Source: Candidatus Nomurabacteria bacterium
GTDB taxonomy: Bacteria > Patescibacteriota > Saccharimonadia > JAGOAT01
NCBI GenBank assembly: GCA_020639315.1
Contig: JACKGM010000001.1
Coordinates: forward strand, 374,767-438,766
Length of the DNA: 64,000 nt
Reading direction: 5' to 3'
In this document: one piece after another, positions 8,971 through 63,335 of the stretch
How positions within the stretch are numbered: position 1 is the stretch's first letter
Layout of the letters: every line of letters begins with the position of its first letter
Notes under the pieces: model-generated
What the model saw: the letters and a program-made list of their open reading frames with translations, nothing else
What the model was told of the DNA's origin: nothing
The model's database searches: none
Program-made: the position numbers and the translations under genes

Positions 8971-9089
8971 ATTACCTCCATGGCCAACAATATAGAAATA
9001 CCATTGGCGTATTAATGATTAGTGATTAGAATTGATAAAACCTTATTAATTTCATCATAGTGGGGCATAGGGATAATTGCAAGCACAGG

Positions 9090-9668
9090 CGGGATACTGG
9101 ATCCCCCGTAAGTTCTCCGAACTTCGGAGGATGACAATGCTCCTCCTGTCATATTCCAAAATCCTGTAAGGATTTATGGGATATCCAGTATTTGAGTTGA
9201 ATCCCCGGAAATGCAAAATACTGGATCCCCCGTAAGTTCTCCGAACTTCGGAGGATGACAAGAGAAAGGCGGAGTTTCGGAGGATGACAATGCCCTCTGT
9301 GTGTCATCTTCCAAATTTCCGTAGGAAATTATGGGAGATCCACCTCCCGTGTCATCTTCGGATTACCCGGAGGGTAATACCGGAGATCCAGTATTTGAAT
9401 TAGTTGCCCAGTAATACAGAAATACTGGATCCCCCGTAAGTTCTATAACCCTGTTGCCATATAACCTCACGGCTTCAAAACTGCCATTTTTGCCCCAGAC
9501 TAGCAAAACACTTCGCAGCGTAACTCCTGTTATGCTTTGTCGTGTTTTGGTATTCTGGAATAAAAATCATCAGCTTTGACCTCGCAAGTTTATATGGCAA
9601 CAGGGTTTATGAACTTCGGAGGATGACAATGCACAATGCCAGAATACAAGGGAGTTTCGGAGGATGGC
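9090..9668. repeat. REP/BIME-like hairpin-repeat cluster 1 (about 8 units, both orientations)
   Basis: Contains units of the form GTCATC[CT]TC..-hairpin-..GATCCAGTAT and their complements, for example 9148-9186, 9303-9342 and 9351-9391. Confidence 0.9.
9447..9607 (+). mobile_element. MITE-A copy 1 (161 bp, 18-bp terminal inverted repeats)
   Basis: Terminal repeats AACCCTGTTGCCATATAA ... TTATATGGCAACAGGGTT, flanked by TAT (9444-9446) and TAT (9608-9610). It is inserted in the loop of a hairpin-repeat unit (gtaagttc|TAT..TAT|gaacttcgg). Confidence 0.85.
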
Positions 9669-11855: not shown

Positions 11856-13634
11856 ATGACTACATCACAAATTCGCCAATCGTTTCTAGATTACTTTGCT
11901 AGTAAGGGGTGTCATATTATTCCTTCGGCACCTTTGGTGCCAAAGGATGACCCGACAGTATTATTCAACATTGCGGGGATGCAACCAATTGTCCCATACC
12001 TCAAAGGTCGACCTCATCCAGCTGGTACACGTTTGGCCAATTCCCAAAAGTGTGTTAGAACATCAGATCTTGAAGAAGTTGGTGATAGCTCGCATTTGAC
12101 TTTTTTTGAAATGCTGGGGCACTGGAGTCTGGGAGATTACTATAAGAAGGAGGCATTGGAGTGGATTTGGGAGTGGTTGACCGCACCTGAGTATTTGGGT
12201 CTAGAAAGCTCCAAGCTCTACGCTACTGTTTATCAGGGAGACAAACAAATTCCAAGAGATGATCAGAGCATCGGCATTTGGCAAGAAATTTTTAACGATC
12301 AAGGTCTTTCAAGCGAGGTAGGTAAGAGGATCCTGACGCTAGGTCGAGAGGATAATTGGTGGGAGATACCTGGAGCAGAGCAGAGTCCAGCTGGTCCCGA
12401 TAGTGAAATTTTTTATTACTTAGGTGAACAAGCTAATCCGGTTTTTGATCCCGAGGATCCAGACTTTATCGAGATTTGCAATTCAGTCTTTATGGCCTAC
12501 CAAAAGACTCCAGATGGGTATCAAGACTTGGTTAAGAAAAATGTTGACTTTGGTGGAGGGTTAGAAAGAATTGCCATGGTCAAGCAAGGAAAAGACTCGG
12601 TCTACGGAATAGATATATTTGTTGAGATTGATCGGGCGATTCAAGCGATAGCGACCAAAGATGATTTGAGAGCAAGAAGAATTATCTCAGATCATATTAG
12701 GACTGCTACGATGATGGTCGGTGATGGGGTGGTACCCGACAATAATGGGGCAGGTTATGTCTTAAGGCGCTTAGTCAGGAGGGCTCTTAGAGAGGCAGAT
12801 CGGATCGGGATCGATAGCCAGCTAATCGACCAATTGGTTCCAGTGGTAATTCATCTTTATCAGGATGCTTATCAAAATCTTGCCCAAGACAAAGACCAGA
12901 TTATCAAGGTGCTAAGCAAGGAAGAGCGTCTTTTTAGGGCTACATTGAAGAAAGGGATTAGATTGTTTCACAAGGAAGTCCAGCAGAAGTTGACCGGTGA
13001 ACAAGCTTTTAAGCTATTTGATACCTACGGTTTTCCTTTAGAACTTAGCCTGGAAGAGGCCAAAAGATTAGGCCTTAGTATTAGCAAAGATTTGGATCAA
13101 GAATTTGCTCAATCTATGTCCGAGCAGAGGGAACGATCTCGGACTGCCAATAAGGGGGTTTTTAAGGGTGGTCTGATTGATCACTCACCCAAGGTGATTC
13201 GTTATCATACTGCTACTCATATCCTTTATCGAGCACTTCGTAACATCCTTGGTGATCATGTAGTGCAAAGGGGAAGTAATATCACAGCCGAACGGACTCG
13301 GTTTGATTTTTCTCACCAGGGTAAGCTGACAGATCGTCAGATCAGCCAGATTGAGCAGATGGTCAACCAGACGATTGAGGCTGGCTTGCCTGTCAGCTAT
13401 CAAGTAATGCCGACCGAACAGGCGTTTGAGCAAGGGGCACTGGGAGCTTTTGGTGATCGTTATGATGATCAGGTAAAAGTCTATCAGATAGGAGAAGACA
13501 GTAACCCGTATTCTTTAGAGATATGCGGAGGCCCTCATGTCGAGAATACTATTGAGGTCGGTAAGTTTAAGATTGTTAAGGAACAAGCATCTTCTGCTGG
13601 GGTTAGGCGGATCAAGGCAGTGATTGAGGATTAA
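11856..13634 (+). CDS. alaS: alanine--tRNA ligase (short form, 592 aa)
   Basis: N-terminus IRQSFLDYFASKGCHIIPSAPLVPKDDPTVLFNIAGMQ, and the editing-domain motifs HTATHIL and CGGPHV. The protein ends right after the editing domain. Confidence 0.9.
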   Translation: MTTSQIRQSFLDYFASKGCHIIPSAPLVPKDDPTVLFNIAGMQPIVPYLKGRPHPAGTRLANSQKCVRTSDLEEVGDSSHLTFFEMLGHWSLGDYYKKEALEWIWEWLTAPEYLGLESSKLYATVYQGDKQIPRDDQSIGIWQEIFNDQGLSSEVGKRILTLGREDNWWEIPGAEQSPAGPDSEIFYYLGEQANPVFDPEDPDFIEICNSVFMAYQKTPDGYQDLVKKNVDFGGGLERIAMVKQGKDSVYGIDIFVEIDRAIQAIATKDDLRARRIISDHIRTATMMVGDGVVPDNNGAGYVLRRLVRRALREADRIGIDSQLIDQLVPVVIHLYQDAYQNLAQDKDQIIKVLSKEERLFRATLKKGIRLFHKEVQQKLTGEQAFKLFDTYGFPLELSLEEAKRLGLSISKDLDQEFAQSMSEQRERSRTANKGVFKGGLIDHSPKVIRYHTATHILYRALRNILGDHVVQRGSNITAERTRFDFSHQGKLTDRQISQIEQMVNQTIEAGLPVSYQVMPTEQAFEQGALGAFGDRYDDQVKVYQIGEDSNPYSLEICGGPHVENTIEVGKFKIVKEQASSAGVRRIKAVIED

Positions 13635-18476: not shown

Positions 18477-18581
18477 GATTCTTGGTTTATACCTGCAAGG
18501 TGTCACCTTGATTACCAGGAATTGCAGGTCGATGGAGGGATTACATTCTTATCGAGGATGCCGAAACCCTACCCCTCTCTT

Positions 18582-18928
18582 GTCATCCTCCGAAACCCCG
18601 CCCTCTCCTGTCATCCTCCGAAACCCCGCCCTCTCCTGTCATCCTCCGAAACCCGAAGGGTTTACGGGGGATCCAGCATTTTGCATTTCCAGGATTCAAT
18701 TCAAATACTGGATATCCCATAAATCCTTACAGGATTTTGGAATATGACAGGGAGAGGATTGTCATCCTCCGAAACCCGAAGGGTTTACGGGGGATCCAGC
18801 ATTCCTGCATTGTGCACGGTCATCCTCCGAAACCCGAAGGGTTTACGGGGGATCCAGCATTTTGCATTTACGGGATTCAACTCAAGTACTGGATCTCATA
18901 AATCCCTGCGGGATTTTGCTATATGATA
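18582..18928. repeat. REP/BIME-like hairpin-repeat cluster 2
   Basis: Two 28-nt half units (GTC at 18582 and 18610), then full hairpin units at 18638-18676, about 18761-18800 and about 18819-18858, with inverted partner units between them. Confidence 0.9.
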
Positions 18929-18962
18929 GAACAGGGTTGGATATTCAGTACTATCTTCCATT

Positions 18963-19123
18963 AACCCTGTTGCCATATAACCTCACGGCTTCAAAACTGC
19001 CATTTTTGCCCCAGACTAGCAAAACACTTCGCAGCGTAACTCCTGTTATGCTTTGTCGTGTTTTGCTATTCTGGAATAAAAATCATCAGCTTTGACCTCG
19101 CAAGTTTATATGGCAACAGGGTT
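18963..19123 (+). mobile_element. MITE-A copy 2 (161 bp)
   Basis: Nearly identical to 9447-9607, with the same terminal repeats. Flanks are ATT and ATA. Confidence 0.85.
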
Positions 19124-19228
19124 ATAGAAATTCGAAGGTTACGGGGAGGCGAGAGCGGAAGATGGAAAAAGGGACAGAAATTTGAGTTAGTGATAGGGAA
19201 GTGAGGTATAGTTACGGGTTTTGTTTGG

Positions 19229-22153: not shown

Positions 22154-22224
22154 TATGAAATGTCGCATAGATATTATAGCATAATAGAATATCTATACGA
22201 GATTACTCCGATTTTGGCTTTGGG

Positions 22225-22271
22225 TTGAGGGGTCTATAGCTGAAGTAACTCCAGTTTTAACTTTGGGCTAA
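22225..22271 (+). repeat. 47-nt conserved element, copy 1 (second copy at 32520-32566)
   Basis: ttgaggggtctatagctgaagtaactccagttttaactttgggctaa matches 32520-32566 at 45 of 47 positions. Both copies lie just upstream of a sigma70-like promoter. Confidence 0.8.
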
Positions 22272-22289
22272 CAAAGCAGAACATTGATA

Positions 22290-32278: not shown

Positions 32279-32285
32279 GTGACTT

Positions 32286-32510
32286 GTCATCCTCCGAAAC
32301 CCCGCCCTCTCCTGTCATCCTCCGAAACCCGTCCCTTGTCTTGTCACCCTCCGAAACCCGAAGGGTTTACGGGGGATCCAGTATCCCTGTATTTACAGGT
32401 ATCCAATTCAAATATTGGATCTCCGGTATTACCCTCCGGGTAATCCAAAGATGACCCAACTCCTGTCATCCTCCGAATCCTCATAGAGGATTACGGGGGA
32501 TCCAGTATTC
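32286..32510. repeat. REP/BIME-like hairpin-repeat cluster 3
   Basis: Begins 8 nt after the leuS stop. Half units have GTC at 32286 and 32314. Full units are at 32343-32381 and 32465-32505, with an inverted unit at about 32415-32455. Confidence 0.9.
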
Positions 32511-32519
32511 GGTATTGTA

Positions 32520-32566
32520 TTGAGGGGTCTATAGCTGAAGGAACTCCAGTTTTAATTTTGGGCTAA
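32520..32566 (+). repeat. 47-nt conserved element, copy 2
   Basis: 45 of 47 positions identical to 22225-22271. Confidence 0.8.
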
Positions 32567-32583
32567 GATTGCAGGGCATTTGA

Positions 32584-35687: not shown

Positions 35688-35721
35688 TCTCTGAGTCCTC
35701 GCTCCTGTCTTCTTATAATAC

Positions 35722-35823
35722 CAATGCCATTAACTTAAGACCTTGTAAGCTTTATTCAATGTACAAATCAAGCATGAATAGAACTCCAAAATATACTGAC
35801 CTTCCCTTAAGTTGATGGCATTG
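35722..35823 (+). mobile_element. MITE-C copy A (102 bp)
   Basis: Terminal repeats CAATGCCATTAACTTAAG ... CTTAAGTTGATGGCATTG. A second copy in inverted orientation lies at 63184-63285. Confidence 0.75.
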
Positions 35824-36218
35824 TCCCGTCATCCTCCGAAACTCGCCCCTTGTCTTGTCATCCTCCGAAACCCGTCCCTTGTCTTGTCATCCTCCGAAGT
35901 TCGGAGAACTTACGGGGGATCCAGTATTCGGGCATTTGCATTGTCATCCTCCGAATTATCCTTAAGAGAATTACGGGGGATCCAGTATTTCGCATTGTCC
36001 TGACTCCTAATACAAATACTGGATCTCCGGTATTTCCCCAAGGGGAAATCCGAAGATGACAAGAGGGGATGGATCTCCCATAAATCCTTACAGGATTTTG
36101 GAAAATGACCCACCTCCTGTCATCCTCCGAAACTCCGCCTTTCTCCTGTCATCCCCGAAACCTGTCCCTCCCCTGTCATCCTCCGAAACCCGAAGGGTTT
36201 ACGGGGGATCCAGTATTC
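35824..36218. repeat. REP/BIME-like hairpin-repeat cluster 4
   Basis: Phased half units, then full units (for example 35885-35925, 35943-35985 and 36174-36215) with inverted partners. Confidence 0.9.
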
Positions 36219-43917: not shown

Positions 43918-43995
43918 TATAGCCCCCGAAAACAAACCCTGTACTTCTGACTGTATTTTATGGTCTATATAGCAAGTTAAAAACAAAACCAGACT
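43918..43995. repeat. mosaic of MITE-B terminal modules
   Basis: TATAGCCCCCGAAAACAAACCCTGTACTT... resembles the left end of 58740-58906. It is followed by TATAGCAAGTTAAAAACAAAACCAGACTTTT, which resembles the end of 50672-50764. It starts 6 nt after the stop codon. Confidence 0.7.
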
Positions 43996-44042
43996 TTTCT
44001 ATCTATCACGATTCCTGACTAGATCTTGAAAATCAGTTACTC

Positions 44043-44119: not shown

Positions 44120-44214
44120 AGACCTAGATTTGACAATCAAGCTTTACAACTTTGATTGCATAGTAATTTTAACATGGATTAGTGAACAAGTCTATTTGAA
44201 TTTAGTGATTGAAT

Positions 44215-44715
44215 ACAGAATACTGGATCCCCCGTAAGTTCTCCGAACTTCGGAGGATGACAATGCCTCCTCTCTTGTCATCTTCGGATTTCTCTAAGGG
44301 AGAAATACCGGAGATCCAGTATTTGAGTTGAACCCCAGAAATACAGAATACTAGATCACCCGTAAACCCTCTGGGTTTCGGAGGATGACAGAATAGGGGT
44401 GGAACTTCGGAGGATGACAGGAGTTGAGTCATCCTCGACAATTCCCGCCCTTCATTTGAAGGGAATTATCGGGGATCCAGAACTCTAGATTATGCACTGG
44501 ATTAACTCAGTTACTTTTAATGTTTATTATTTGTTTTCTGGATACCCAGAGCAAGCTCTGAGTATGACGGATGCAAATACGGGATACTGGATCACTCGTA
44601 AACCCTCTGGGTTTCGGAGGATGACAATGCCCTCTGTCGCCAAATCAAATTTCCACCCCCTCTTCGCGTCATCTTCCAAATTTCCGTAGGAAATTATGGG
44701 AGATCTAGTATTTGG
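44215..44715. repeat. REP/BIME-like hairpin-repeat cluster 5
   Basis: Multiple units. The ~107-nt composite at 44221-44327 recurs at 50333-50437, and the ~85-nt segment at 44508-44595 recurs at 58972-59056. Confidence 0.9.
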
Positions 44716-50063: not shown

Positions 50064-50321
50064 ATGTCCAAGCGTTCTATTCGTGATTCTGACCTAGATA
50101 TGATAGTCAAGATTGCCCTCTATCAGATCTTGGGGTTGGTGTGGATAGTCAATAGTGGTGGGTATCGAATATTCCCTATAGGACTAATTGTCGGCTACTT
50201 TTTGACCAAACATGAAAAGCTTCGTCTCAACCAAAGGCTGGAGTTTGCTCCTCTAGTAATGGGGGCTACCTTGGGGCTGATTGGGATTGGTGGGATTTAC
50301 CTGACTTTGCCTTGGTTTTAA
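50064..50321 (+). CDS. small two-TM membrane protein (hypothetical)
   Basis: ORF 7 nt after the adhesin stop, with two hydrophobic spans. Confidence 0.4.
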   Translation: MSKRSIRDSDLDMIVKIALYQILGLVWIVNSGGYRIFPIGLIVGYFLTKHEKLRLNQRLEFAPLVMGATLGLIGIGGIYLTLPWF

Positions 50322-50326
50322 AAAAT

Positions 50327-50645
50327 GCGGGATACTGGATCCCCCGTAAGTTCTCCGAACTTCGGAGGATGACAATGCCTCCTCTTGTCATCTTCGGATT
50401 TCTCCAAGGGAGAAATACCGGAGATCCAGTATTTGAATTTAATACCTGTAAATGCAGAGATACTGGATCCCCCGTAAACCCTCTGGGTTTCGGAGGATGA
50501 CAACTCACAATGCGGGATACTGGATCCCCCGTAAGTTCTCCGAACTTCGGAGGATGACAGGAGAGGGGTGGAGTTTCGGAGGATGACAATGCAGTGGCAG
50601 TTTTGGAGGATGACAGGGCAAGGGACAGGTTTCGGAGGATGACAA
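50327..50645. repeat. REP/BIME-like hairpin-repeat cluster 6
   Basis: Starts 6 nt after the stop codon. It ends with four roughly 28-nt phased ..TTCGGAGGATGACA.. half units at 50553-50645. Confidence 0.9.
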
Positions 50646-50671
50646 GCCTTGCTACCACTAGATAGTTTTGA

Positions 50672-50764
50672 TATAGCAAGCCCAAACCAAAACCAGACAA
50701 TTTGAGCTGTACTATAGACTCTAGAGTTGGGTCAAAAGTCTGGTTTTGTTTTTAACTTGCTATA
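50672..50764 (-). mobile_element. short MITE-B-related element (93 bp)
   Basis: TATAGCAAGCCCAAACCAAAACCAGAC ... GTCTGGTTTTGTTTTTAACTTGCTATA. This is the inverted counterpart of 60435-60540. Confidence 0.7.
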
Positions 50765-50790
50765 CGCTGGGAGGGTGCTAATTAAGCTCG

Positions 50791-58148: not shown

Positions 58149-58724
58149 ATGAATTTAAAACAATTTTTTCAGGGTAGGGTTACAGGGGTAGTATTGAGTG
58201 TATCTGGGGGGCTTGGGATACTAGCAGCAATGCAGTTGGCTCTCGATCAATTGCATTTGCTTGAAGACCCAGGCTTTGTCCCGGTCTGTTCAATCAATCA
58301 GACTGTTAGTTGTACACCCGTGATCGAATCTTGGCAGTCCTCAGTCTTTGGCTTTCCAAACTCATACTTGGGGCTAGTTAGTTTTGCGATGATACTAGCA
58401 GTCGGGGTGGCCTTGATCGGCAAAGTCAAATTCCCTAGATGGTATATGCTGATATTTAATCTAGGTACTCTTGGTGGATTCATCATGGTTCACTGGTTGG
58501 CTGGGAGTGTGATGTTTGACATTGGCAAGCTCTGCTTGTGGTGCGTACTAGTTTGGATTTGTACTGGCGCTAGCTTTGTCTATACTTTGGCTTACAATTT
58601 TGCCGAGGATAATCTAAGGCTCGGTAGTCAAAAGTTTCGAGACGCCTTTGTCGAGAATCAACTTTCAATTCTTCTAGCCTGGTATTTATTGATGGCCGGG
58701 CTGATAGCCTGGAAGCTGTTCTAG
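58149..58724 (+). CDS. vitamin K epoxide reductase (VKOR) family protein
   Basis: Loop cysteines CSINQTVSC, the active-site CLWC (CxxC) in a TM helix, and 4-5 TM spans. Confidence 0.75.
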   Translation: MNLKQFFQGRVTGVVLSVSGGLGILAAMQLALDQLHLLEDPGFVPVCSINQTVSCTPVIESWQSSVFGFPNSYLGLVSFAMILAVGVALIGKVKFPRWYMLIFNLGTLGGFIMVHWLAGSVMFDIGKLCLWCVLVWICTGASFVYTLAYNFAEDNLRLGSQKFRDAFVENQLSILLAWYLLMAGLIAWKLF

Positions 58725-58739
58725 ATTGGATTTGTTACC

Positions 58740-58906
58740 TATAGCCCCCGAAAAACAAAACCTGTACTTTTGACTGTATCTTATAGTCTATAACTGCCAC
58801 TATTGCTCCTCACCATATCTACGGATATGATTTGTCACAATAGCGACAATTCTAGATCGATAATCTATCACCCAAAACAAACAGGTTTTGTTTTACTGGG
58901 GCTATA
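58740..58906 (+). mobile_element. MITE-B (167 bp, about 26-bp imperfect terminal inverted repeats)
   Basis: TATAGCCCCCGAAAAACAAAACCTGT ... ACAGGTTTTGTTTTACTGGGGCTATA, matching at 23 of 26 positions. Internal palindromes include CATATC-tacg-GATATG. The right ~119 bp recur at 60539-60657. Confidence 0.8.
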
Positions 58907-58971
58907 TAGCCCTAACACTTTGTCTTGCTATAAGTCAGGGTGTTGGGTCTATGGATAATTGGTTAGGTAAC

Positions 58972-59435
58972 CCAGTTACTTTTAATATTTATTGTTAGTT
59001 TTCTGGATACCCAGAGCAAGCTCTGAGTATGACGGATGCAAATACGGGATACTGGATCCCCCGTAAGTTCTCCGAACTTCGGAGGATGACAAGACAAGGG
59101 ACGGGTTTCGGAGGATGACAATAACCCTGTTGCCATATAAACTTGCGAGGTCAAAGCTGATGATTTTTATTCCAGAATACCAAAACACGACAAAGCATAA
59201 CAGGAGTTACGCTGCGAAGTGTTTTGCTAGTCTGGGGCAAAAATGGCAGTTTTGAAGCCGTGAGGTTATATGGTAACAGGGTTAATGCCCTCCTCCTGTC
59301 ATCTTCCAAATTTCCGCCCACTTCGCGTCATCTTCCAAATTTCTGTAGGAAATTATGGGAGATCCACCCTCTCCTCTGTCATCTTCGGATTACCCGAAGG
59401 GTAATACCGGAGATCCAGTATTTGAATTAGACTCA
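58972..59435. repeat. REP/BIME-like hairpin-repeat cluster 7 (interrupted by MITE-A copy 3)
   Basis: Units at 59005-59035 and 59050-59089, half units up to 59120, then units at 59298-59435. Confidence 0.9.
59123..59283 (-). mobile_element. MITE-A copy 3 (161 bp, inverted relative to copies 1 and 2)
   Basis: Same sequence in reverse orientation, with one mismatch in one terminal repeat (GGTAAC). Flanked by AAT (59120-59122) and AAT (59284-59286). Confidence 0.85.
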
Positions 59436-59462
59436 GGAAATGCAGGAATACTAGAAATTAGG

Positions 59463-60392
59463 CTAGACAGGTCGTAAAGTGCCAAAGAAAATTTGCCAGG
59501 CTAGGGCAGATTTGGCTAGCAAGCTTAGTAAGATAAAGACCTTCTCACCATAGATATAATCATTCCAACGACCTATTTTCTTATACTGAAGATACATATT
59601 AAGTGCAAAACAATTGAAGAAAATAAAGATCGAAAGATAGATATAGTAGACAAAAGTCGGGATCATCCCATTGCCACTGGAGCTTGAACCCCAGAAATAA
59701 ACCCCGATTACAACCCAAGGTACAATCCCTGCTAGGATACCAATCTTGAAGCTTAGCCAATCGACTACCCTCTTGCCTTGATTGATTTTTTCCATAGATA
59801 GACCGAGCAAATTCATGATCATGGTCAGGATAAAGACCATTAGAAGAGTAGAGAGATCTTCTATGCCAGCAAGCATAGCGATCGCTAGCATCATCGTCGA
59901 AGCACTGAGGCTATACTCAATAAATCTTGTTGGATTGGTAGAAAGTCTAAGATTGGCTTGATACGGATCGGGTCTTATTAGTCCGAGGTAGAAGTGGAAT
60001 CCACTTGAAAGTAAGAGGAATATTATAATTAGTCCGACTAGGGGTATTTCAAATAAGGTTTTAGAGTCGATTACTAGTGAGCTAGTCGCGAGATCAAAAG
60101 TCTGATAAGAGGTGGTGACAGGTAGGCTAAAGTCTGTAGCTAGCACAATCATGACAATGGCCTGCAGAAGATGGATTGTCCCCATAATGATATTAAAAGC
60201 TACTAATTTGTCTAGACTCGACTTACGCAAAATCCCTGCATCTCCAGGATCGCCTCCGAAGTCCAGAACTACTTTTTCTGCTATCAACGATGCATCAGCA
60301 TCGCTTCCATCAGATAAAAGAATTTCTGAATCTTCGGAAGGCAAGCCTGGAGTATCCGAGGTTTTGCGTAAGTCGAGTAAAAGTTTTTGCAT
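59463..60392 (-). CDS. heliorhodopsin with an N-terminal acidic extension
   Basis: The motifs align with the prototype heliorhodopsin 48C12 as I recall it: FN..G..HLLQ...M..L...DF.LP.T..Y; R..EYSLS.S.M; GI.AGIVPW; FVY.I..S.F.FFN.FAL..YLQYK..G.W..Y..GE....LSL.AKSALAWQIF.GTL.P. The retinal-binding Lys lies in SLLAKSALAWQ (about K294). Confidence 0.85.
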   Translation of the reverse strand: MQKLLLDLRKTSDTPGLPSEDSEILLSDGSDADASLIAEKVVLDFGGDPGDAGILRKSSLDKLVAFNIIMGTIHLLQAIVMIVLATDFSLPVTTSYQTFDLATSSLVIDSKTLFEIPLVGLIIIFLLLSSGFHFYLGLIRPDPYQANLRLSTNPTRFIEYSLSASTMMLAIAMLAGIEDLSTLLMVFILTMIMNLLGLSMEKINQGKRVVDWLSFKIGILAGIVPWVVIGVYFWGSSSSGNGMIPTFVYYIYLSIFIFFNCFALNMYLQYKKIGRWNDYIYGEKVFILLSLLAKSALAWQIFFGTLRPV

Positions 60393-60434
60393 ATTATTAC
60401 CTTTGTTTTAATTAAAATTTTCTATTGTAAATAT

Positions 60435-60657
60435 TATAGCATACCCCAAACAAAACCAGACTTTTGACCCAACCCTAGAGTCTATCAAGCTAGTTTTCTA
60501 TAGTACAGCTCAAATTGTCCGGTTTTGTTTTGAGCTTGCTATAACTGCCACTATTGCTCCTCACTATATCTACGGATATGATTTGTCACAATAGCGACAA
60601 TTCTAGATCCATAATCTATCACCCAAAACAAACAGGTTTTGTTTTATGGGGGCTATA
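60435..60657 (+). mobile_element. composite of a short MITE-B-related element (60435-60540) and the right ~119 bp of MITE-B (60539-60657)
   Basis: TATAGCATACCCCAAACAAAACCAGAC...GTCCGGTTTTGTTTTGAGCTTGCTATA, then ATAACTGCCACTATTGCTCC...ACAGGTTTTGTTTTATGGGGGCTATA. The latter matches 58788-58906 closely. Confidence 0.75.
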
Positions 60658-60805
60658 TCACTTTTTACTTTACATTTGGATCAATAAAGTGTAAGATTAT
60701 TTGCGAAACAGTGAAGTATCTGACTCCTTGGTACCAAAAGTGTCAAAAGTGTCCAGTAACAAACGGTTTTATAAGTAATAAATTAATAAGAAAGGTTTTA
60801 GTCAG

Positions 60806-61154: not shown

Positions 61155-62966
61155 ATGGTAGAAAACAAGATTCGTAATATAGCAGTAATCGCCCATGTCG
61201 ATCATGGTAAGACTACTTTGGTCGATGCTTTTTTGAAGCAGACCAAAGTCTTTCGTGATAATCAGGCCGAGATGGGTCAGGCTTTGATTATGGATTCTAG
61301 TGATCAAGAGCGTGAGCGAGGGATTACTATCACAGCCAAGATTACGGCAGTAAAGTTTGATGACACCCAGATAAATATTATCGACACGCCCGGACACGCT
61401 GATTTTGGTGGAGAGGTAGAGCGAACACTCCATATGGCTGATGGCTGCCTCCTAATCGTAGATGCTCAAGAGGGTCCGATGCCTCAGACCAAGTTTGTGC
61501 TCGAGAAAGCTTTTGTGGCTGGACTTCGTCCAATCGTCGTAATTAACAAGATCGATAAACCGGCCGCTAGGGTGTCTGAAATAGTAGATGAGATCGGGGA
61601 CTTATTTTTGGAGCTTGCTACTGATGATAGTCAGCTCGATTATCCGGTCTATTATGCAATTGGTCGCGATGGTAAGGCTTGGAAAGAATTACCAAATGAT
61701 CCGAGTGAGCCAGCCGATATTCAGCCAATCTTACGAGCAATTATTGAGCATATTCCTGCTCCACAAACTTCCGAAGGCGGATTTCAGTTGTTGGCTACCT
61801 CACTTGAGTGGGATGATTATCAAGGCAAGTATGTGATCGGCAAAGTAGAGCGAGGTCAGCTCAAGGCTGGTGAAATCTTAAGCTTGGTAGACCAATCTGG
61901 AGTAGTGGGTAGTGGCTATCGAGTCGATAAGATTTATGGATATCAAGGTCTAGATAAGGTGATCAAGGATCAGGCTAGTGCAGGTGAGATCGTTGCGGTC
62001 ACTGGTATCAAGGATGCCAAGATTGGCCAGACCCTGACTACGCCAGATCAACCGGAAGCCTTGGAAGCAATCGACTTGGAGCCACCGACTTTGAGTATTT
62101 ATCTCGGACCCAATACCTCTCCCTTTAAAGGCCTAGAAGGCGAATTTACTACTTCGAGACAAATTGGGGATCGATTGAAGCGAGAATTGGAGACTAATAT
62201 CGGCTTGATAGTAGAGGATGATGGGGTTGGCTTCACCGTTAAGGGTAGGGGTGAATTGCACTTGAGTGTACTGATGGAGACAATGCGTCGAGAAGGGTTT
62301 GAGTTTGAGATCGGCAGACCCAAGGTAGTGTATAAAGTGCAGGATGGTCAGAGTCTGGAGCCAGTAGAGCTAGTGACTGTCGAGGTACCAGTCGAACATA
62401 TTGGAGTAATCCAGTCTGAGTTTGGTAGTCGTAAGGCTGAACTTCTAGAACAGGTCAACCTTCGTGATAATTTGGTCAGGCTAGTCTACAGGATTAGTAC
62501 TCGTAATCTAATCGGCCTAAGGAGTCAATTGATTACAGCTACCAAAGGTACCTTGGTAATGAATAGTTTGATGGATGGTTATCAGCCTAAGACAGCTGAG
62601 CTGGCATCAAAACGCAACGGAGTCTTGATCGCTTGGGAGCAGGGGGAGAGTCGGGCTTATGCTCTGAGTAATGCTGAGGCTAGAGGTGTATTGTTCGTCG
62701 GGCCAGGGGTCAAGCTATATCAGGGGCAGATTATTGGACTTGCCAATCAGTCGGGGGATTTGGATATCAATGCTTCTAAGTCCAAGCAACTGACCAATAT
62801 GCGGAGCAAGAGTAGTGATGGTACGATCAAGTTGACTCCAGCGATTGAGATGAGCCTCGAACAGTCAATGGACTTTTTAAACGATGATGAGCTCTTGGAA
62901 ATCACACCTAGCTCACTGAGGCTGAGAAAACGAATTTTGGATAAAGGGCTTCGTAAGAAGAAGTAG
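61155..62966 (+). CDS. typA: translational GTPase TypA/BipA
   Basis: IRNIAVIAHVDHGKTTLVD, DTPGHADFGGEVER, NKIDK. 603 aa with the BipA-type C-terminal domain. Confidence 0.9.
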   Translation: MVENKIRNIAVIAHVDHGKTTLVDAFLKQTKVFRDNQAEMGQALIMDSSDQERERGITITAKITAVKFDDTQINIIDTPGHADFGGEVERTLHMADGCLLIVDAQEGPMPQTKFVLEKAFVAGLRPIVVINKIDKPAARVSEIVDEIGDLFLELATDDSQLDYPVYYAIGRDGKAWKELPNDPSEPADIQPILRAIIEHIPAPQTSEGGFQLLATSLEWDDYQGKYVIGKVERGQLKAGEILSLVDQSGVVGSGYRVDKIYGYQGLDKVIKDQASAGEIVAVTGIKDAKIGQTLTTPDQPEALEAIDLEPPTLSIYLGPNTSPFKGLEGEFTTSRQIGDRLKRELETNIGLIVEDDGVGFTVKGRGELHLSVLMETMRREGFEFEIGRPKVVYKVQDGQSLEPVELVTVEVPVEHIGVIQSEFGSRKAELLEQVNLRDNLVRLVYRISTRNLIGLRSQLITATKGTLVMNSLMDGYQPKTAELASKRNGVLIAWEQGESRAYALSNAEARGVLFVGPGVKLYQGQIIGLANQSGDLDINASKSKQLTNMRSKSSDGTIKLTPAIEMSLEQSMDFLNDDELLEITPSSLRLRKRILDKGLRKKK

Positions 62967-63335
62967 CTATAGCCCCCGTAAGCTCTTTGAGCTTCGGAGG
63001 ATGACAATGCCCTTTTTGTGTCATCTTCCAAATTTCCTTTAGGAAATTATGGGAGATCCAGTATTTGGATTTGACATCAGGGCAATACGGTAATACTGGA
63101 TCCCCCGTAAGTTCTCTGAACTTCGGAGGATGACAGAAGAGTAGTAGGTTTCGGAGGATGACAATGTCCTCCGCCTGTCATCTCAATACCATTAACTTAA
63201 GGAAAGGCCAGTATCTTTTGACATCCTGTTAAAGCTTGATTTGTACATTGAATAAAACTTGCAAAAGCTTAAGTTAATGGCATTGGCCTGTCATCTTCGG
63301 ATTACCCGGAGGGTAATACCGGAGATCCAGTATTT
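62967..63335. repeat. REP/BIME-like hairpin-repeat cluster 8 (interrupted by MITE-C copy B)
   Basis: Starts at the base after the typA stop with CTATAGCCCCCGTAAG.... Units at 62972-63005, 63019-63060, 63093-63135 and 63289-63330. Confidence 0.9.
63184..63285 (-). mobile_element. MITE-C copy B (102 bp)
   Basis: CAATACCATTAACTTAAG ... CTTAAGTTAATGGCATTG, inverted relative to 35722-35823. It is flanked by an 11-nt direct repeat, GCCTGTCATCT (63173-63183 and 63286-63296). Confidence 0.75.

Follow-up and report, generated by a model that had tools for sequence, protein, structure and literature searches.

Hairpin-forming repeats fill about 3.2 kb (~5%) of a 64-kb stretch from the genome of a Candidatus Nomurabacteria bacterium (assembly GCA_020639315.1, contig JACKGM010000001.1, positions 374,767 to 438,766 of the forward strand; the whole stretch is called the window in the following). 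The repeat units are probably strand-specific hairpins of single-stranded DNA (ssDNA) and represent an extended-stem variant of the family formed by the CGTC-tagged repetitive extragenic palindromes (REPs) and the Ssn-related motifs (SRMs). Their membership in this CGTC-REP/SRM superfamily is very likely. On balance we also favour, with some reservation, the view that the units are acted upon, as ssDNA hairpins, by a nuclease of the Ssn type from this genome. The hairpin family was already known as a kind. New are the host phylum and the density of the units, a second helix with a bulged A in place of the loop, a T:G pair that is obligatory, two hairpin types in strictly antiparallel arrangement and the occurrence of arrays of 5' half units.

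Structure and arrangement of the units

Thirty-five units were aligned under one imposed helix, in which a bulged A of the 3' side separates eight proximal pairs from at most eight distal ones. The covariance model built from these units was scanned unfiltered over both strands of the window and matched 37 full units with 26-74 bits (E 5e-5 to 6e-19), 19 on the plus and 18 on the minus strand, all in eight clusters and none elsewhere. A 38th unit is interrupted by a 163-nt miniature inverted-repeat transposable element (MITE). An earlier note on this DNA, made from the letters alone, had listed the eight clusters together with a set of stem and loop variants. Stem search and RNA folding located all clusters and every quoted variant at the positions given there, and the covariance model added no unit outside of them.

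The claims of the same note that the outer stems covary and that structure rather than sequence is conserved hold up in the pairing statistics. Standard pairs made up 98.2% of the 501 stem cells in the alignment, in which the sequences represent about seven outer-stem classes and about ten inner-stem types, so that independent events are far fewer than the cells. With shuffled partners the value was 80.1 +/- 1.1%, and none of 500 shuffles reached the observed one; an offset of the partner by 1-3 columns reduced pairing to 25-57%. Both-side (compensatory) changes were present in 11 of the 16 pairs, six of the eight proximal pairs varied with compensation, and the covariation score was 0.447 versus 0.149 in shuffles. 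Independent double changes are estimated at roughly five or more for the proximal (outer) and ten or more for the distal (inner) stem.

Invariant in all 35 aligned units are G9, T10 and C11 of the tag as well as A12, T16, G53, A56, T57, C58 and A60. A 5' leader of about 10 nt with 73% pyrimidine precedes the tag, and the base in front of GTC is T in 27, C in four, G in three units and A in one. The unpaired GTC tag is present in all of them (35/35). The proximal helix of 8 bp opens with A12-T57 (35/35) and T13-A56 (34/35), followed by two variable pairs (CC/GG, CT/AG, AT/AT, AC/GT or TT/AG), the T:G at pair 5, which is indeed without exception (35/35) as had been noticed before, a pair that is C-G in 33 of 35 units, and two further variable pairs (CG/CG, GG/CC, CA/TG, GA/TC or AG/CT at pairs 7 and 8). 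It ends at the bulged A, which is found in 33 of the 33 units having an inner helix. The insert between the proximal arms comprises 15-32 nt and makes a second helix of 6-8 bp with a 3-4-nt loop; about ten different sequences of this distal helix occur, and the total stem length is 14-16 bp. Behind the stem follows an unpaired tail of C58 (35/35), C59 (33/35), A60 (35/35) and G61 (31/35), with CCA complete in 33/35. Class E is the only compact class.

The strands of a unit are not equivalent, and the asymmetry described previously is real with respect to the T:G pair, the bulge and the tag. With the covariance model the complementary strand scored 12-15 bits at the unit sites versus 26-74 bits for the tagged strand. 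Folded as ssDNA, the GTC strand of each of the four classes tested is about 1.5 kcal/mol more stable than its complement; for the type unit of class A the values are -10.4 kcal/mol (z -3.7) and -8.8 kcal/mol.

The clusters consist of three to eight units with alternating head-to-head and tail-to-tail junctions. In all eight, classes A and E occupy one strand and classes B, C, D and F the other (21 A/E and 16 non-A units). The comparison with bacterial interspersed mosaic elements (BIMEs), drawn from the sequence at the outset, is thus upheld by two hairpin types in fixed opposite orientation in every cluster. A conserved spacer of about 25 nt separates units placed tail-to-tail, the head-to-head linker has 9-15 nt, and the A-X dimers recur with a period of about 128 nt (spacings 124-129). 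A second copy of the 107-nt block at 44221-44327 lies at 50333-50437 and differs, as reported, by one substitution and an indel of 2 nt.

Besides the full units there are 16 half units, each composed of the leader, GTCATCCTCCGAAAC and one or two further bases; they comprise leader, tag, 5' arm and the beginning of the distal stem. Arrays of them have a period of 28-29 nt (TRF). They always stand immediately 5' of a full unit of the same orientation, and in the window all are 5' halves; 3' halves were never seen. In folding, a single downstream 3' arm could pair with each 5' arm of an array. Speculatively, the arrays could be footprints of CGTC REP copying, for instance by Ssn leader cleavage and template switching, or they could be functional alternative half-sites sharing one 3' arm.

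Relation to CGTC repeats and Ssn nucleases

CGTC REPs were described as elements with a CGTC or TGTC tag (or CCTC), a stem of 8-9 bp with A and T, complementary, at its first two positions, a loop of 4-5 nt and a tail reading CCA, arranged mostly as head-to-head dimers; the families CGTC-1 to -4 include dRS3 of Neisseria and RPE-4 and RPE-6 of Rickettsia (PMC3733652). The tag, the A/T opening of an 8-bp stem and the CCA tail are all found in the window units. Further common traits are sub-families whose stems change in a complementary fashion, G-T pairs, dimers placed head-to-head and, among the window ORFs, the lack of an associated transposase. The loop of 4-5 nt is replaced by the structured insert, and CGTC REPs were not reported from Patescibacteria (PMC3733652).

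The Ssn family of nucleases became known, together with its hairpin motifs, only in 2025 (PMC11893778). The NTS of Neisseria (CGTCATTCCCGCGMAVGCGGGAATCYRG) and related SRM hairpins flank ssnA, a GIY-YIG gene for 94 amino acids (Chenal 2025, PMC11893778). Ssn binds and cuts NTS/SRM as ssDNA only, on the tagged strand only and a few nucleotides upstream; double-stranded DNA, RNA and the reverse strand are no substrates. Cleavage is controlled by the 3 nt located 5' of the palindrome, the most critical base for binding is the C directly after it, and in N. meningitidis the action of Ssn reduces the integration of NTS-bearing transforming DNA (PMC11893778). In the window units both determinants, GTC for cleavage and C58 for binding, are invariant in 35/35 and orientation-specific, and in sequence the invariant positions match the published determinants exactly. 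Like the units, NTS/SRM are oriented hairpins with a 5' HGTC tag, a stem starting with A/T-T, C-Y after the stem and top-strand specificity, present in hundreds of mostly intergenic copies that form clusters (PMC11893778). Class E comes nearest of all classes to the published motif NTSvar, CGTCATACTCGGG...CCCGAGTATC (PMC11893778). Unlike NTS/SRM with their loop of 0-5 nt, the window units possess the second helix and the bulged A, the obligatory T:G, fixed antiparallel types, half-unit arrays and a host from the Saccharibacteria, within the Candidate Phyla Radiation (CPR). For the T:G pair, two sequence-specific contacts on a single strand are the preferred reading. At this place Y stands opposite R in the SRM consensus, and the pair survives in every class. 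A T:A in short-loop units of Brevundimonas is not accounted for by this reading.

The same frame was found beside GIY-YIG genes in another phylum. A scan for GTCATCCTCCG-N12-24-CGGGGGATCCAG over 185,579 genomes, one per species, yielded 35 loci (~0.2 expected by chance), almost all of them from Brevundimonas and other Caulobacterales with 60-70% G+C. The Brevundimonas units carry a CGTC tag after a 'cctttc' leader, and their loci also contain short-loop units, e.g., CGTCATCCTCCGGCTTGACCGGAGGATCCAG, that fit the strict SRM pattern. Since 75 relaxed and 11 strict SRM matches were counted at these loci, the extended form is common in Brevundimonas too and constitutes the majority. Window and Brevundimonas share the T:G in long-insert units, the A before the 3' arm, the pyrimidine leader, a conserved spacer within tail-to-tail dimers and the succession of half unit and full unit. 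An open reading frame (ORF) of 113-151 amino acids with a GIY-YIG domain (Pfam PF01541) was present in three of the 35 loci, and in 6/6 loci examined (L008, L030, L032, L045, L046, L048) a single-domain GIY-YIG gene for 113-116 amino acids is flanked by units. These stand on both sides of the gene, within 15-100 nt, in L008 and L032. In L045, L046 and L048, which hold genes of the same clade and were fetched independently, the GIY-YIG gene is bracketed by CGTC hairpin dimers, and L045 has a half unit and a full unit beside it as in the arrays of the window. The clade profile revealed 20,314 related 50%-identity clusters in a set of 1.84 billion proteins. Several clade members start with 'VIPAKAGIQ', an NTS-type hairpin read into the ORF.

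Two side observations concern these loci. The Brevundimonas short-loop form has a T:A fifth pair (CCGGAGGAT; L032 25-73, L001 853-901) and the long-insert form T:G (CCGGGGGAT; L032 78-137, L008 2999-3064), and both stand side by side at the same GIY-YIG gene. Public GIY-YIG predictions (P0251, P0256, P0258, P0263, P0305 and others) often have spurious N-terminal extensions, e.g., 'VIPAKAGIQ' or 'SFPRKRESS', which are translated flanking hairpins.

Several results weigh against an Ssn-type partner and against the family assignment. The clade profile was run on all six-frame ORFs of the window and of the contigs L036-L041 (46 kb from the organism and its relatives), accompanied by a GIY-YIG regular expression, and detected no GIY-YIG gene (hmmsearch, best E 3.8); this outcome is the reason for the reservation on the full nuclease statement. 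Pfam and NCBIfam searches with about 40 ORFs revealed no partner enzyme in the window. The Brevundimonas GIY-YIG proteins had no NCBIfam match and no relative in the PDB, and their membership in the CDD family cd10448 is putative. Homologues of Ssn have been reported mainly from Gram-negative Pseudomonadati. Stems of 14-16 bp exceed the 8-9 bp of the described CGTC REPs, and tail-to-tail dimers and clusters, there described as rare (PMC3733652), are the rule here, where all 37 units are clustered. The published SRM pattern, HGTCWYN(0-2)YYVSBRHN(0-5)WNVSBRGN(0-2)RNCYNB (PMC11893778), had no match in the window (0.3 in shuffles) and fitted none of the 37 units. It misses them because the second helix and the bulged A replace the 0-5-nt loop: relaxing the loop term alone from N(0-5) to N(0-20) gave 24 matches versus 0.87 in dinucleotide shuffles. 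Classes C, D, E and F depart from the pattern also at S/B positions. Finally, selection on a DNA hairpin and on an RNA hairpin is inseparable by sequence alone. A lineage ssn gene was also sought via repeat-encoded peptides, with no candidates, and an orphan ORF adjoining the units of a relative (L040 16892-17344) showed no detectable domain.

Selection at the RNA level was among the roles considered in the earlier note. The units would act as hairpins in 3' untranslated regions, terminating transcription or guarding mRNA 3' ends, and T:G would be a G-U wobble, which is fully stable in RNA; frequent G-T pairs in REP stems have been taken as a hint of RNA function (Di Nocera, PMC3733652). Clusters do begin 1-8 nt past stop codons, as stated for leuS (32278), typA (62966) and the ORF 50064-50321, at least one gene end lies upstream of 5/8 clusters, and stable hairpins in a transcript have some effect whatever their origin. 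The mixed orientation argues against this role: with 19 units on the plus and 18 on the minus strand and both orientations in each cluster, half of the units in any transcript would be the A-C mismatch version. Even the three clusters between co-directional plus-strand genes contain seven plus and five minus units, and the clusters at 9090 and 44215 are located between divergent genes. The stems are followed by CCAGTAT and not by a T-run. No unit hairpin was called terminator-like in a scan that reported 14 sites versus 15.0 expected; the lone site within a cluster (50343-50329) is a short stem of the tail region and not a unit stem. Rfam has no family for the units, and only five tRNAs in the window reached the gathering score. 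The unpaired invariant GTC and CCA would be useless to a generic stabiliser, and they match the determinants of the ssDNA nuclease. As the selected role, termination or stabilisation of mRNA is improbable; passive effects of the units on transcripts are likely.

The other role proposed from the letters, a substrate of an enzyme encoded elsewhere, fits the evidence for an ssDNA hairpin, but not with a REP-associated tyrosine transposase (RAYT) or IS200-like enzyme as that partner. REPs or REPINs served by a RAYT or an IS200/IS605-type TnpA share the general architecture: the 5' tag of the hairpin is conserved and unpaired, its stem is irregular, and inverted doublets occur together with a BIME-like alternation of two hairpin types. 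RAYT-linked REPs are known in many phyla (PMC3116915, PMC3733652). Their tag, however, is GTAG, in contrast to (T/C)GTC with a CCA tail here, where the other strand begins with ATACTGG. No CGTC REP was reported to flank a tyrosine transposase gene, though many of the hosts encode one (Di Nocera 2013, PMC3733652), the identical frame adjoins GIY-YIG genes in six of six Brevundimonas loci, and the window ORFs include no Y1_Tnp domain. The only RAYT-linked REP compared, that of Nostoc punctiforme (gttgggtttcgttcctcaacccaac), was dismissed as a relative, its sequence being unrelated. We regard a partner of this type as very improbable. Scarcely likely, too, is an origin as decaying MITE-like composites without structural constraint, in which complementarity would stem from palindromic insertion or arm-to-arm templated repair and the invariant bases would merely be inherited. 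Composites are indeed copied as blocks (the 107-nt repeat, the dimer period), the clusters serve as landing pads for unrelated MITEs, and palindromic inserts are self-complementary by construction, so that part of the inner-stem covariation may not be due to selection. The proximal classes, however, differ by point-wise double changes at four positions with tag, T:G and tail fixed. Arm-to-arm repair would erase the T:G, which is kept in every aligned unit and in Brevundimonas. The frame is conserved across phyla at 43% vs 67% G+C, and degenerate copies (44588, 18878, 62969) score lower, so decay is visible when present. Such debris formation may account for part of the distal-helix diversity.

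Beyond the CGTC-REP/SRM family, the units also resemble other repeats. The REPs of E. coli are imperfect hairpins with an unpaired conserved 5' tetranucleotide, and their BIMEs have two types (Y and Z there, A and X here) in alternating orientation, type-specific linkers and tandem dimer arrays. Their partner is a domesticated ssDNA-hairpin enzyme from a single genomic gene, to which the proposed Ssn partner may be likened by analogy; the tag (GTAG), the enzyme (an HUH/Y1 transposase, not a GIY-YIG nuclease) and the sequences are unrelated to those considered here. Cyanobacterial small dispersed repeats, the subject of Elhai et al. in 2008, are said to be hairpins with compensatory changes and nested arrangements. 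The likeness is one of description only. An origin of the window from a heterocystous cyanobacterium, with an SDR/HIP1 or Nezha context, was rejected: HIP1 occurs only twice in its 64 kb, and TypA places it in Saccharibacteria. REPINs (PMC3116915) have inverted doublets as the apparent copying unit, comparable to the ~107-nt blocks, and are lineage-restricted and expanding, but they are RAYT-linked and their arms are two copies of one REP, whereas the arms in the window come from different stem classes. A literature search with unit sequence strings retrieved nothing relevant, and the unit was not present in viral contigs.

Clusters, relatives and neighbouring elements

Type units and cluster contents are listed in Table 1. 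Among the eight clusters, no rule was found that relates cluster orientation to the direction of the flanking genes.

Table 1. Type units of the hairpin classes and contents of the eight clusters (window positions; strand in brackets where units differ)
Feature	Position	Strand	Description
Class A type unit	18638..18675	+	tag GTC; proximal stem ATCCTCCG/CGGGGGAT, T:G at pair 5; distal stem AAACCC-gaa-GGGTTT; bulged A; tail CCA(G)
Class B type unit	9351..9390	+	stems ATCTTCGG/CCGGAGAT and ATTACCC-gga-GGGTAAT
Class C type unit	9303..9342	+	stems ATCTTCCA/TGGGAGAT and AATTTCC-gta-GGAAATT
Class D type unit	9148..9187	+	stems ATATTCCA/TGGGATAT and AAATCCT-gta-AGGATTT
Class E type unit	44539..44568	-	one uninterrupted 11-bp stem ATACTCAGAGC/GCTCTGGGTAT, 4-nt loop, no bulge
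Cluster 1	9086..9668		full units A(-) 9098-9135, D(+) 9148-9187, A(-) 9222-9259, C(+) 9303-9342, B(+) 9351-9390; half unit A(-) 9273-9288; MITE-split A(-) 9422-9444 and 9611-9627
Cluster 2 (interval of the earlier note)	18561..18935		28-nt half-unit array 18561-18637 (+); full units A(+) 18638-18675, D(-) 18709-18748, A(+) 18761-18798, A(+) 18819-18856; degenerate D-like unit (-) inside 18878-18935
Cluster 3	32279..32508		begins 1 nt past leuS stop; half-unit array 32283-32342 (+); full units A(+) 32343-32380, B(-) 32416-32455, A(+) 32465-32504
Cluster 4	35821..36216		half-unit arrays 35821-35885 (+), 36114-36174 (+); full units A(+) 35886-35923, A(+) 35943-35984, B(-) 36020-36060, D(-) 36070-36109, A(+) 36175-36212
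Cluster 5	44212..44715		full units A(-) 44224-44261, B(+) 44277-44318, A(-) 44352-44389, F(+) 44428-44479, E(-) 44539-44568, A(-) 44588-44625 (degenerate), C(+) 44668-44707; half unit A(-) 44403-44418
Cluster 6	50324..50646		full units A(-) 50336-50373, B(+) 50387-50428, A(-) 50464-50501, A(-) 50521-50558; 29-nt half-unit array 50559-50646 (-)
Cluster 7	58992..59421		full units E(-) 59004-59033, A(-) 59053-59090, C(+) 59327-59366, B(+) 59378-59417; half units A(-) 59104-59119, C(+) 59298-59313; MITE 59124-59286 in head-to-head linker
Cluster 8	62956..63333		abuts typA stop codon; full units A-like(-) 62969-63005 (tail degenerate), C(+) 63020-63060, A(-) 63097-63134, B(+) 63290-63329; half unit A(-) 63147-63162; unrelated 103-nt inverted-repeat element 63184-63286

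The window genes code for a sortase, a PilM-like protein, a heliorhodopsin, a short alanyl-tRNA synthetase (AlaRS), LexA, a protein with a Pfam RecO_N match and several domain-less proteins; RecX-like NCBIfam matches were weak and below the cutoff. This gene content fits Saccharibacteria. The AlaRS gene (11856-13634) encodes just 592 amino acids with the catalytic and the editing-associated SAD domain, the usual C-terminal part being missing. The best named matches of TypA were from Candidatus Saccharibacteria, at 93% and then at 71% or less. LeuS was found only on short Logan contigs that break at repeats. The relative with the 93% TypA (GCA_017983775.1, contigs L040 and L041) is syntenic to the window from 50.8 to 63.9 kb with 74-82% nucleotide identity. 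Clusters 7 and 8 have no counterpart there, the orthologous sites holding 205 nt and 90 nt free of units; its only two units in 19 kb are a D/A pair, placed tail-to-tail at another site and accompanied by a degenerate half-unit array. No unit was present in 62 kb from three Saccharibacteria whose TypA identity is 67-71%. A metagenome scan for class A retrieved only two short contigs (L038, L039) of closer relatives, carrying the same units, arrays and MITE; these contigs contain no nuclease gene. The empty orthologous sites and the unit-free distant relatives show that the repeats are restricted to one sub-lineage and are expanding in the window genome, a lineage-restricted gain of clusters.

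Other small elements were observed at and near the clusters. The 163-nt MITE has copies at 9446-9608 (+), 18962-19124 (+) and 59124-59286 (-) and in L039 (811-975) that are 97-99% identical, with terminal inverted repeats AACCCTGTTGCCATATAA and 3-bp A/T-rich target duplications (TAT, ATT). From its copies in a class A hairpin loop and in a head-to-head linker, the clusters appear as landing sites for small elements. An inverted-repeat element of about 103 nt with the ends CCATTAACTTAAG occurs at 35721-35823 and, in opposite orientation and 83% identical, in cluster 8; both copies abut hairpin clusters. A palindromic element of about 100 nt, TATAGCAAG...AAACAAAACCAGAC...GTCTGGTTTTGTTT...CTTGCTATA, is present at ~43968-44000, 50672-50770, 58740-58910 and 60435-60660, beside tRNA-Asp and clusters, and also in L039, where the 163-nt MITE interrupts it. 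A direct repeat of 73 nt, 84% identical, lies at 22213-22285 beside tRNA-Ala and at 32508-32580 directly after cluster 3. Cluster 7 and the heliorhodopsin gene (59463-60392, -) are carried by a 1.9-kb segment (58724-60662) that is bounded by 120-nt direct repeats (58788-58907, 60539-60658; 97% identical) and missing from the syntenic VKOR-RRM intergenic region of L040. With its bounding repeats and its absence there, the segment looks like a cassette gained or lost by recombination between the repeats.

The start of the window contains an integrase-core (rve) fragment (115-399) and, at 1815-2690, the C-terminal portion of a large serine recombinase, which overlaps tRNA-Met (2647-2722, -); the region 115-2722 looks like the remnant of an element integrated at a tRNA gene. 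The heptamer GATCAAG was counted 45 times on the plus and 19 times on the minus strand, with about four expected per strand, dispersed in coding sequence. TGATCAAG is the commonest 8-mer outside the repeats, and GATC has 437 occurrences in the window versus ~250 expected. The excess of GATCAAG may reflect a bias in codons or dipeptides, a motif linked to methylation or a signal of the uptake type.

Proposed mode of action and significance

Once a locus becomes single-stranded, in imported transforming DNA, on the lagging-strand template or in repair intermediates, the GTC strand would fold. We infer that a single-domain GIY-YIG nuclease of the Ssn type, encoded elsewhere in the genome, would bind the stem and the C after it and would cut a few nucleotides 5' of GTC, within the leader. 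By the opposed A/E and B/C/D/F types, each DNA strand of every cluster would offer cleavable sites. The expected outcome would be a fragmentation of ssDNA at the intergenic clusters that modulates recombination, and the same pair of enzyme and hairpin probably drives the spread of the repeats. Whether a reduced, host-dependent lineage has thereby recently expanded an SRM-type system to about 5%, as programmed break points for imported or replicating ssDNA, is speculative and we consider it unlikely.

The seven stem classes are a natural mutational series that separates bases read as sequence (GTC, T:G, AT, CCA) from bases that only have to pair, and the series is useful for engineering Ssn enzymes as programmable cutters of ssDNA. 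The spurious hairpin-derived N-termini of public GIY-YIG predictions could mark Ssn-hairpin pairs from protein data alone. The published search pattern overlooks the whole extended-stem form. The filled and empty sites, the half-unit arrays and the fixed A/X polarity give handles on how CGTC-type REPs multiply. The CGTC-REP/SRM family reaches the CPR, where it occupies about 5% of the sequence in a normally repeat-poor, streamlined genome.

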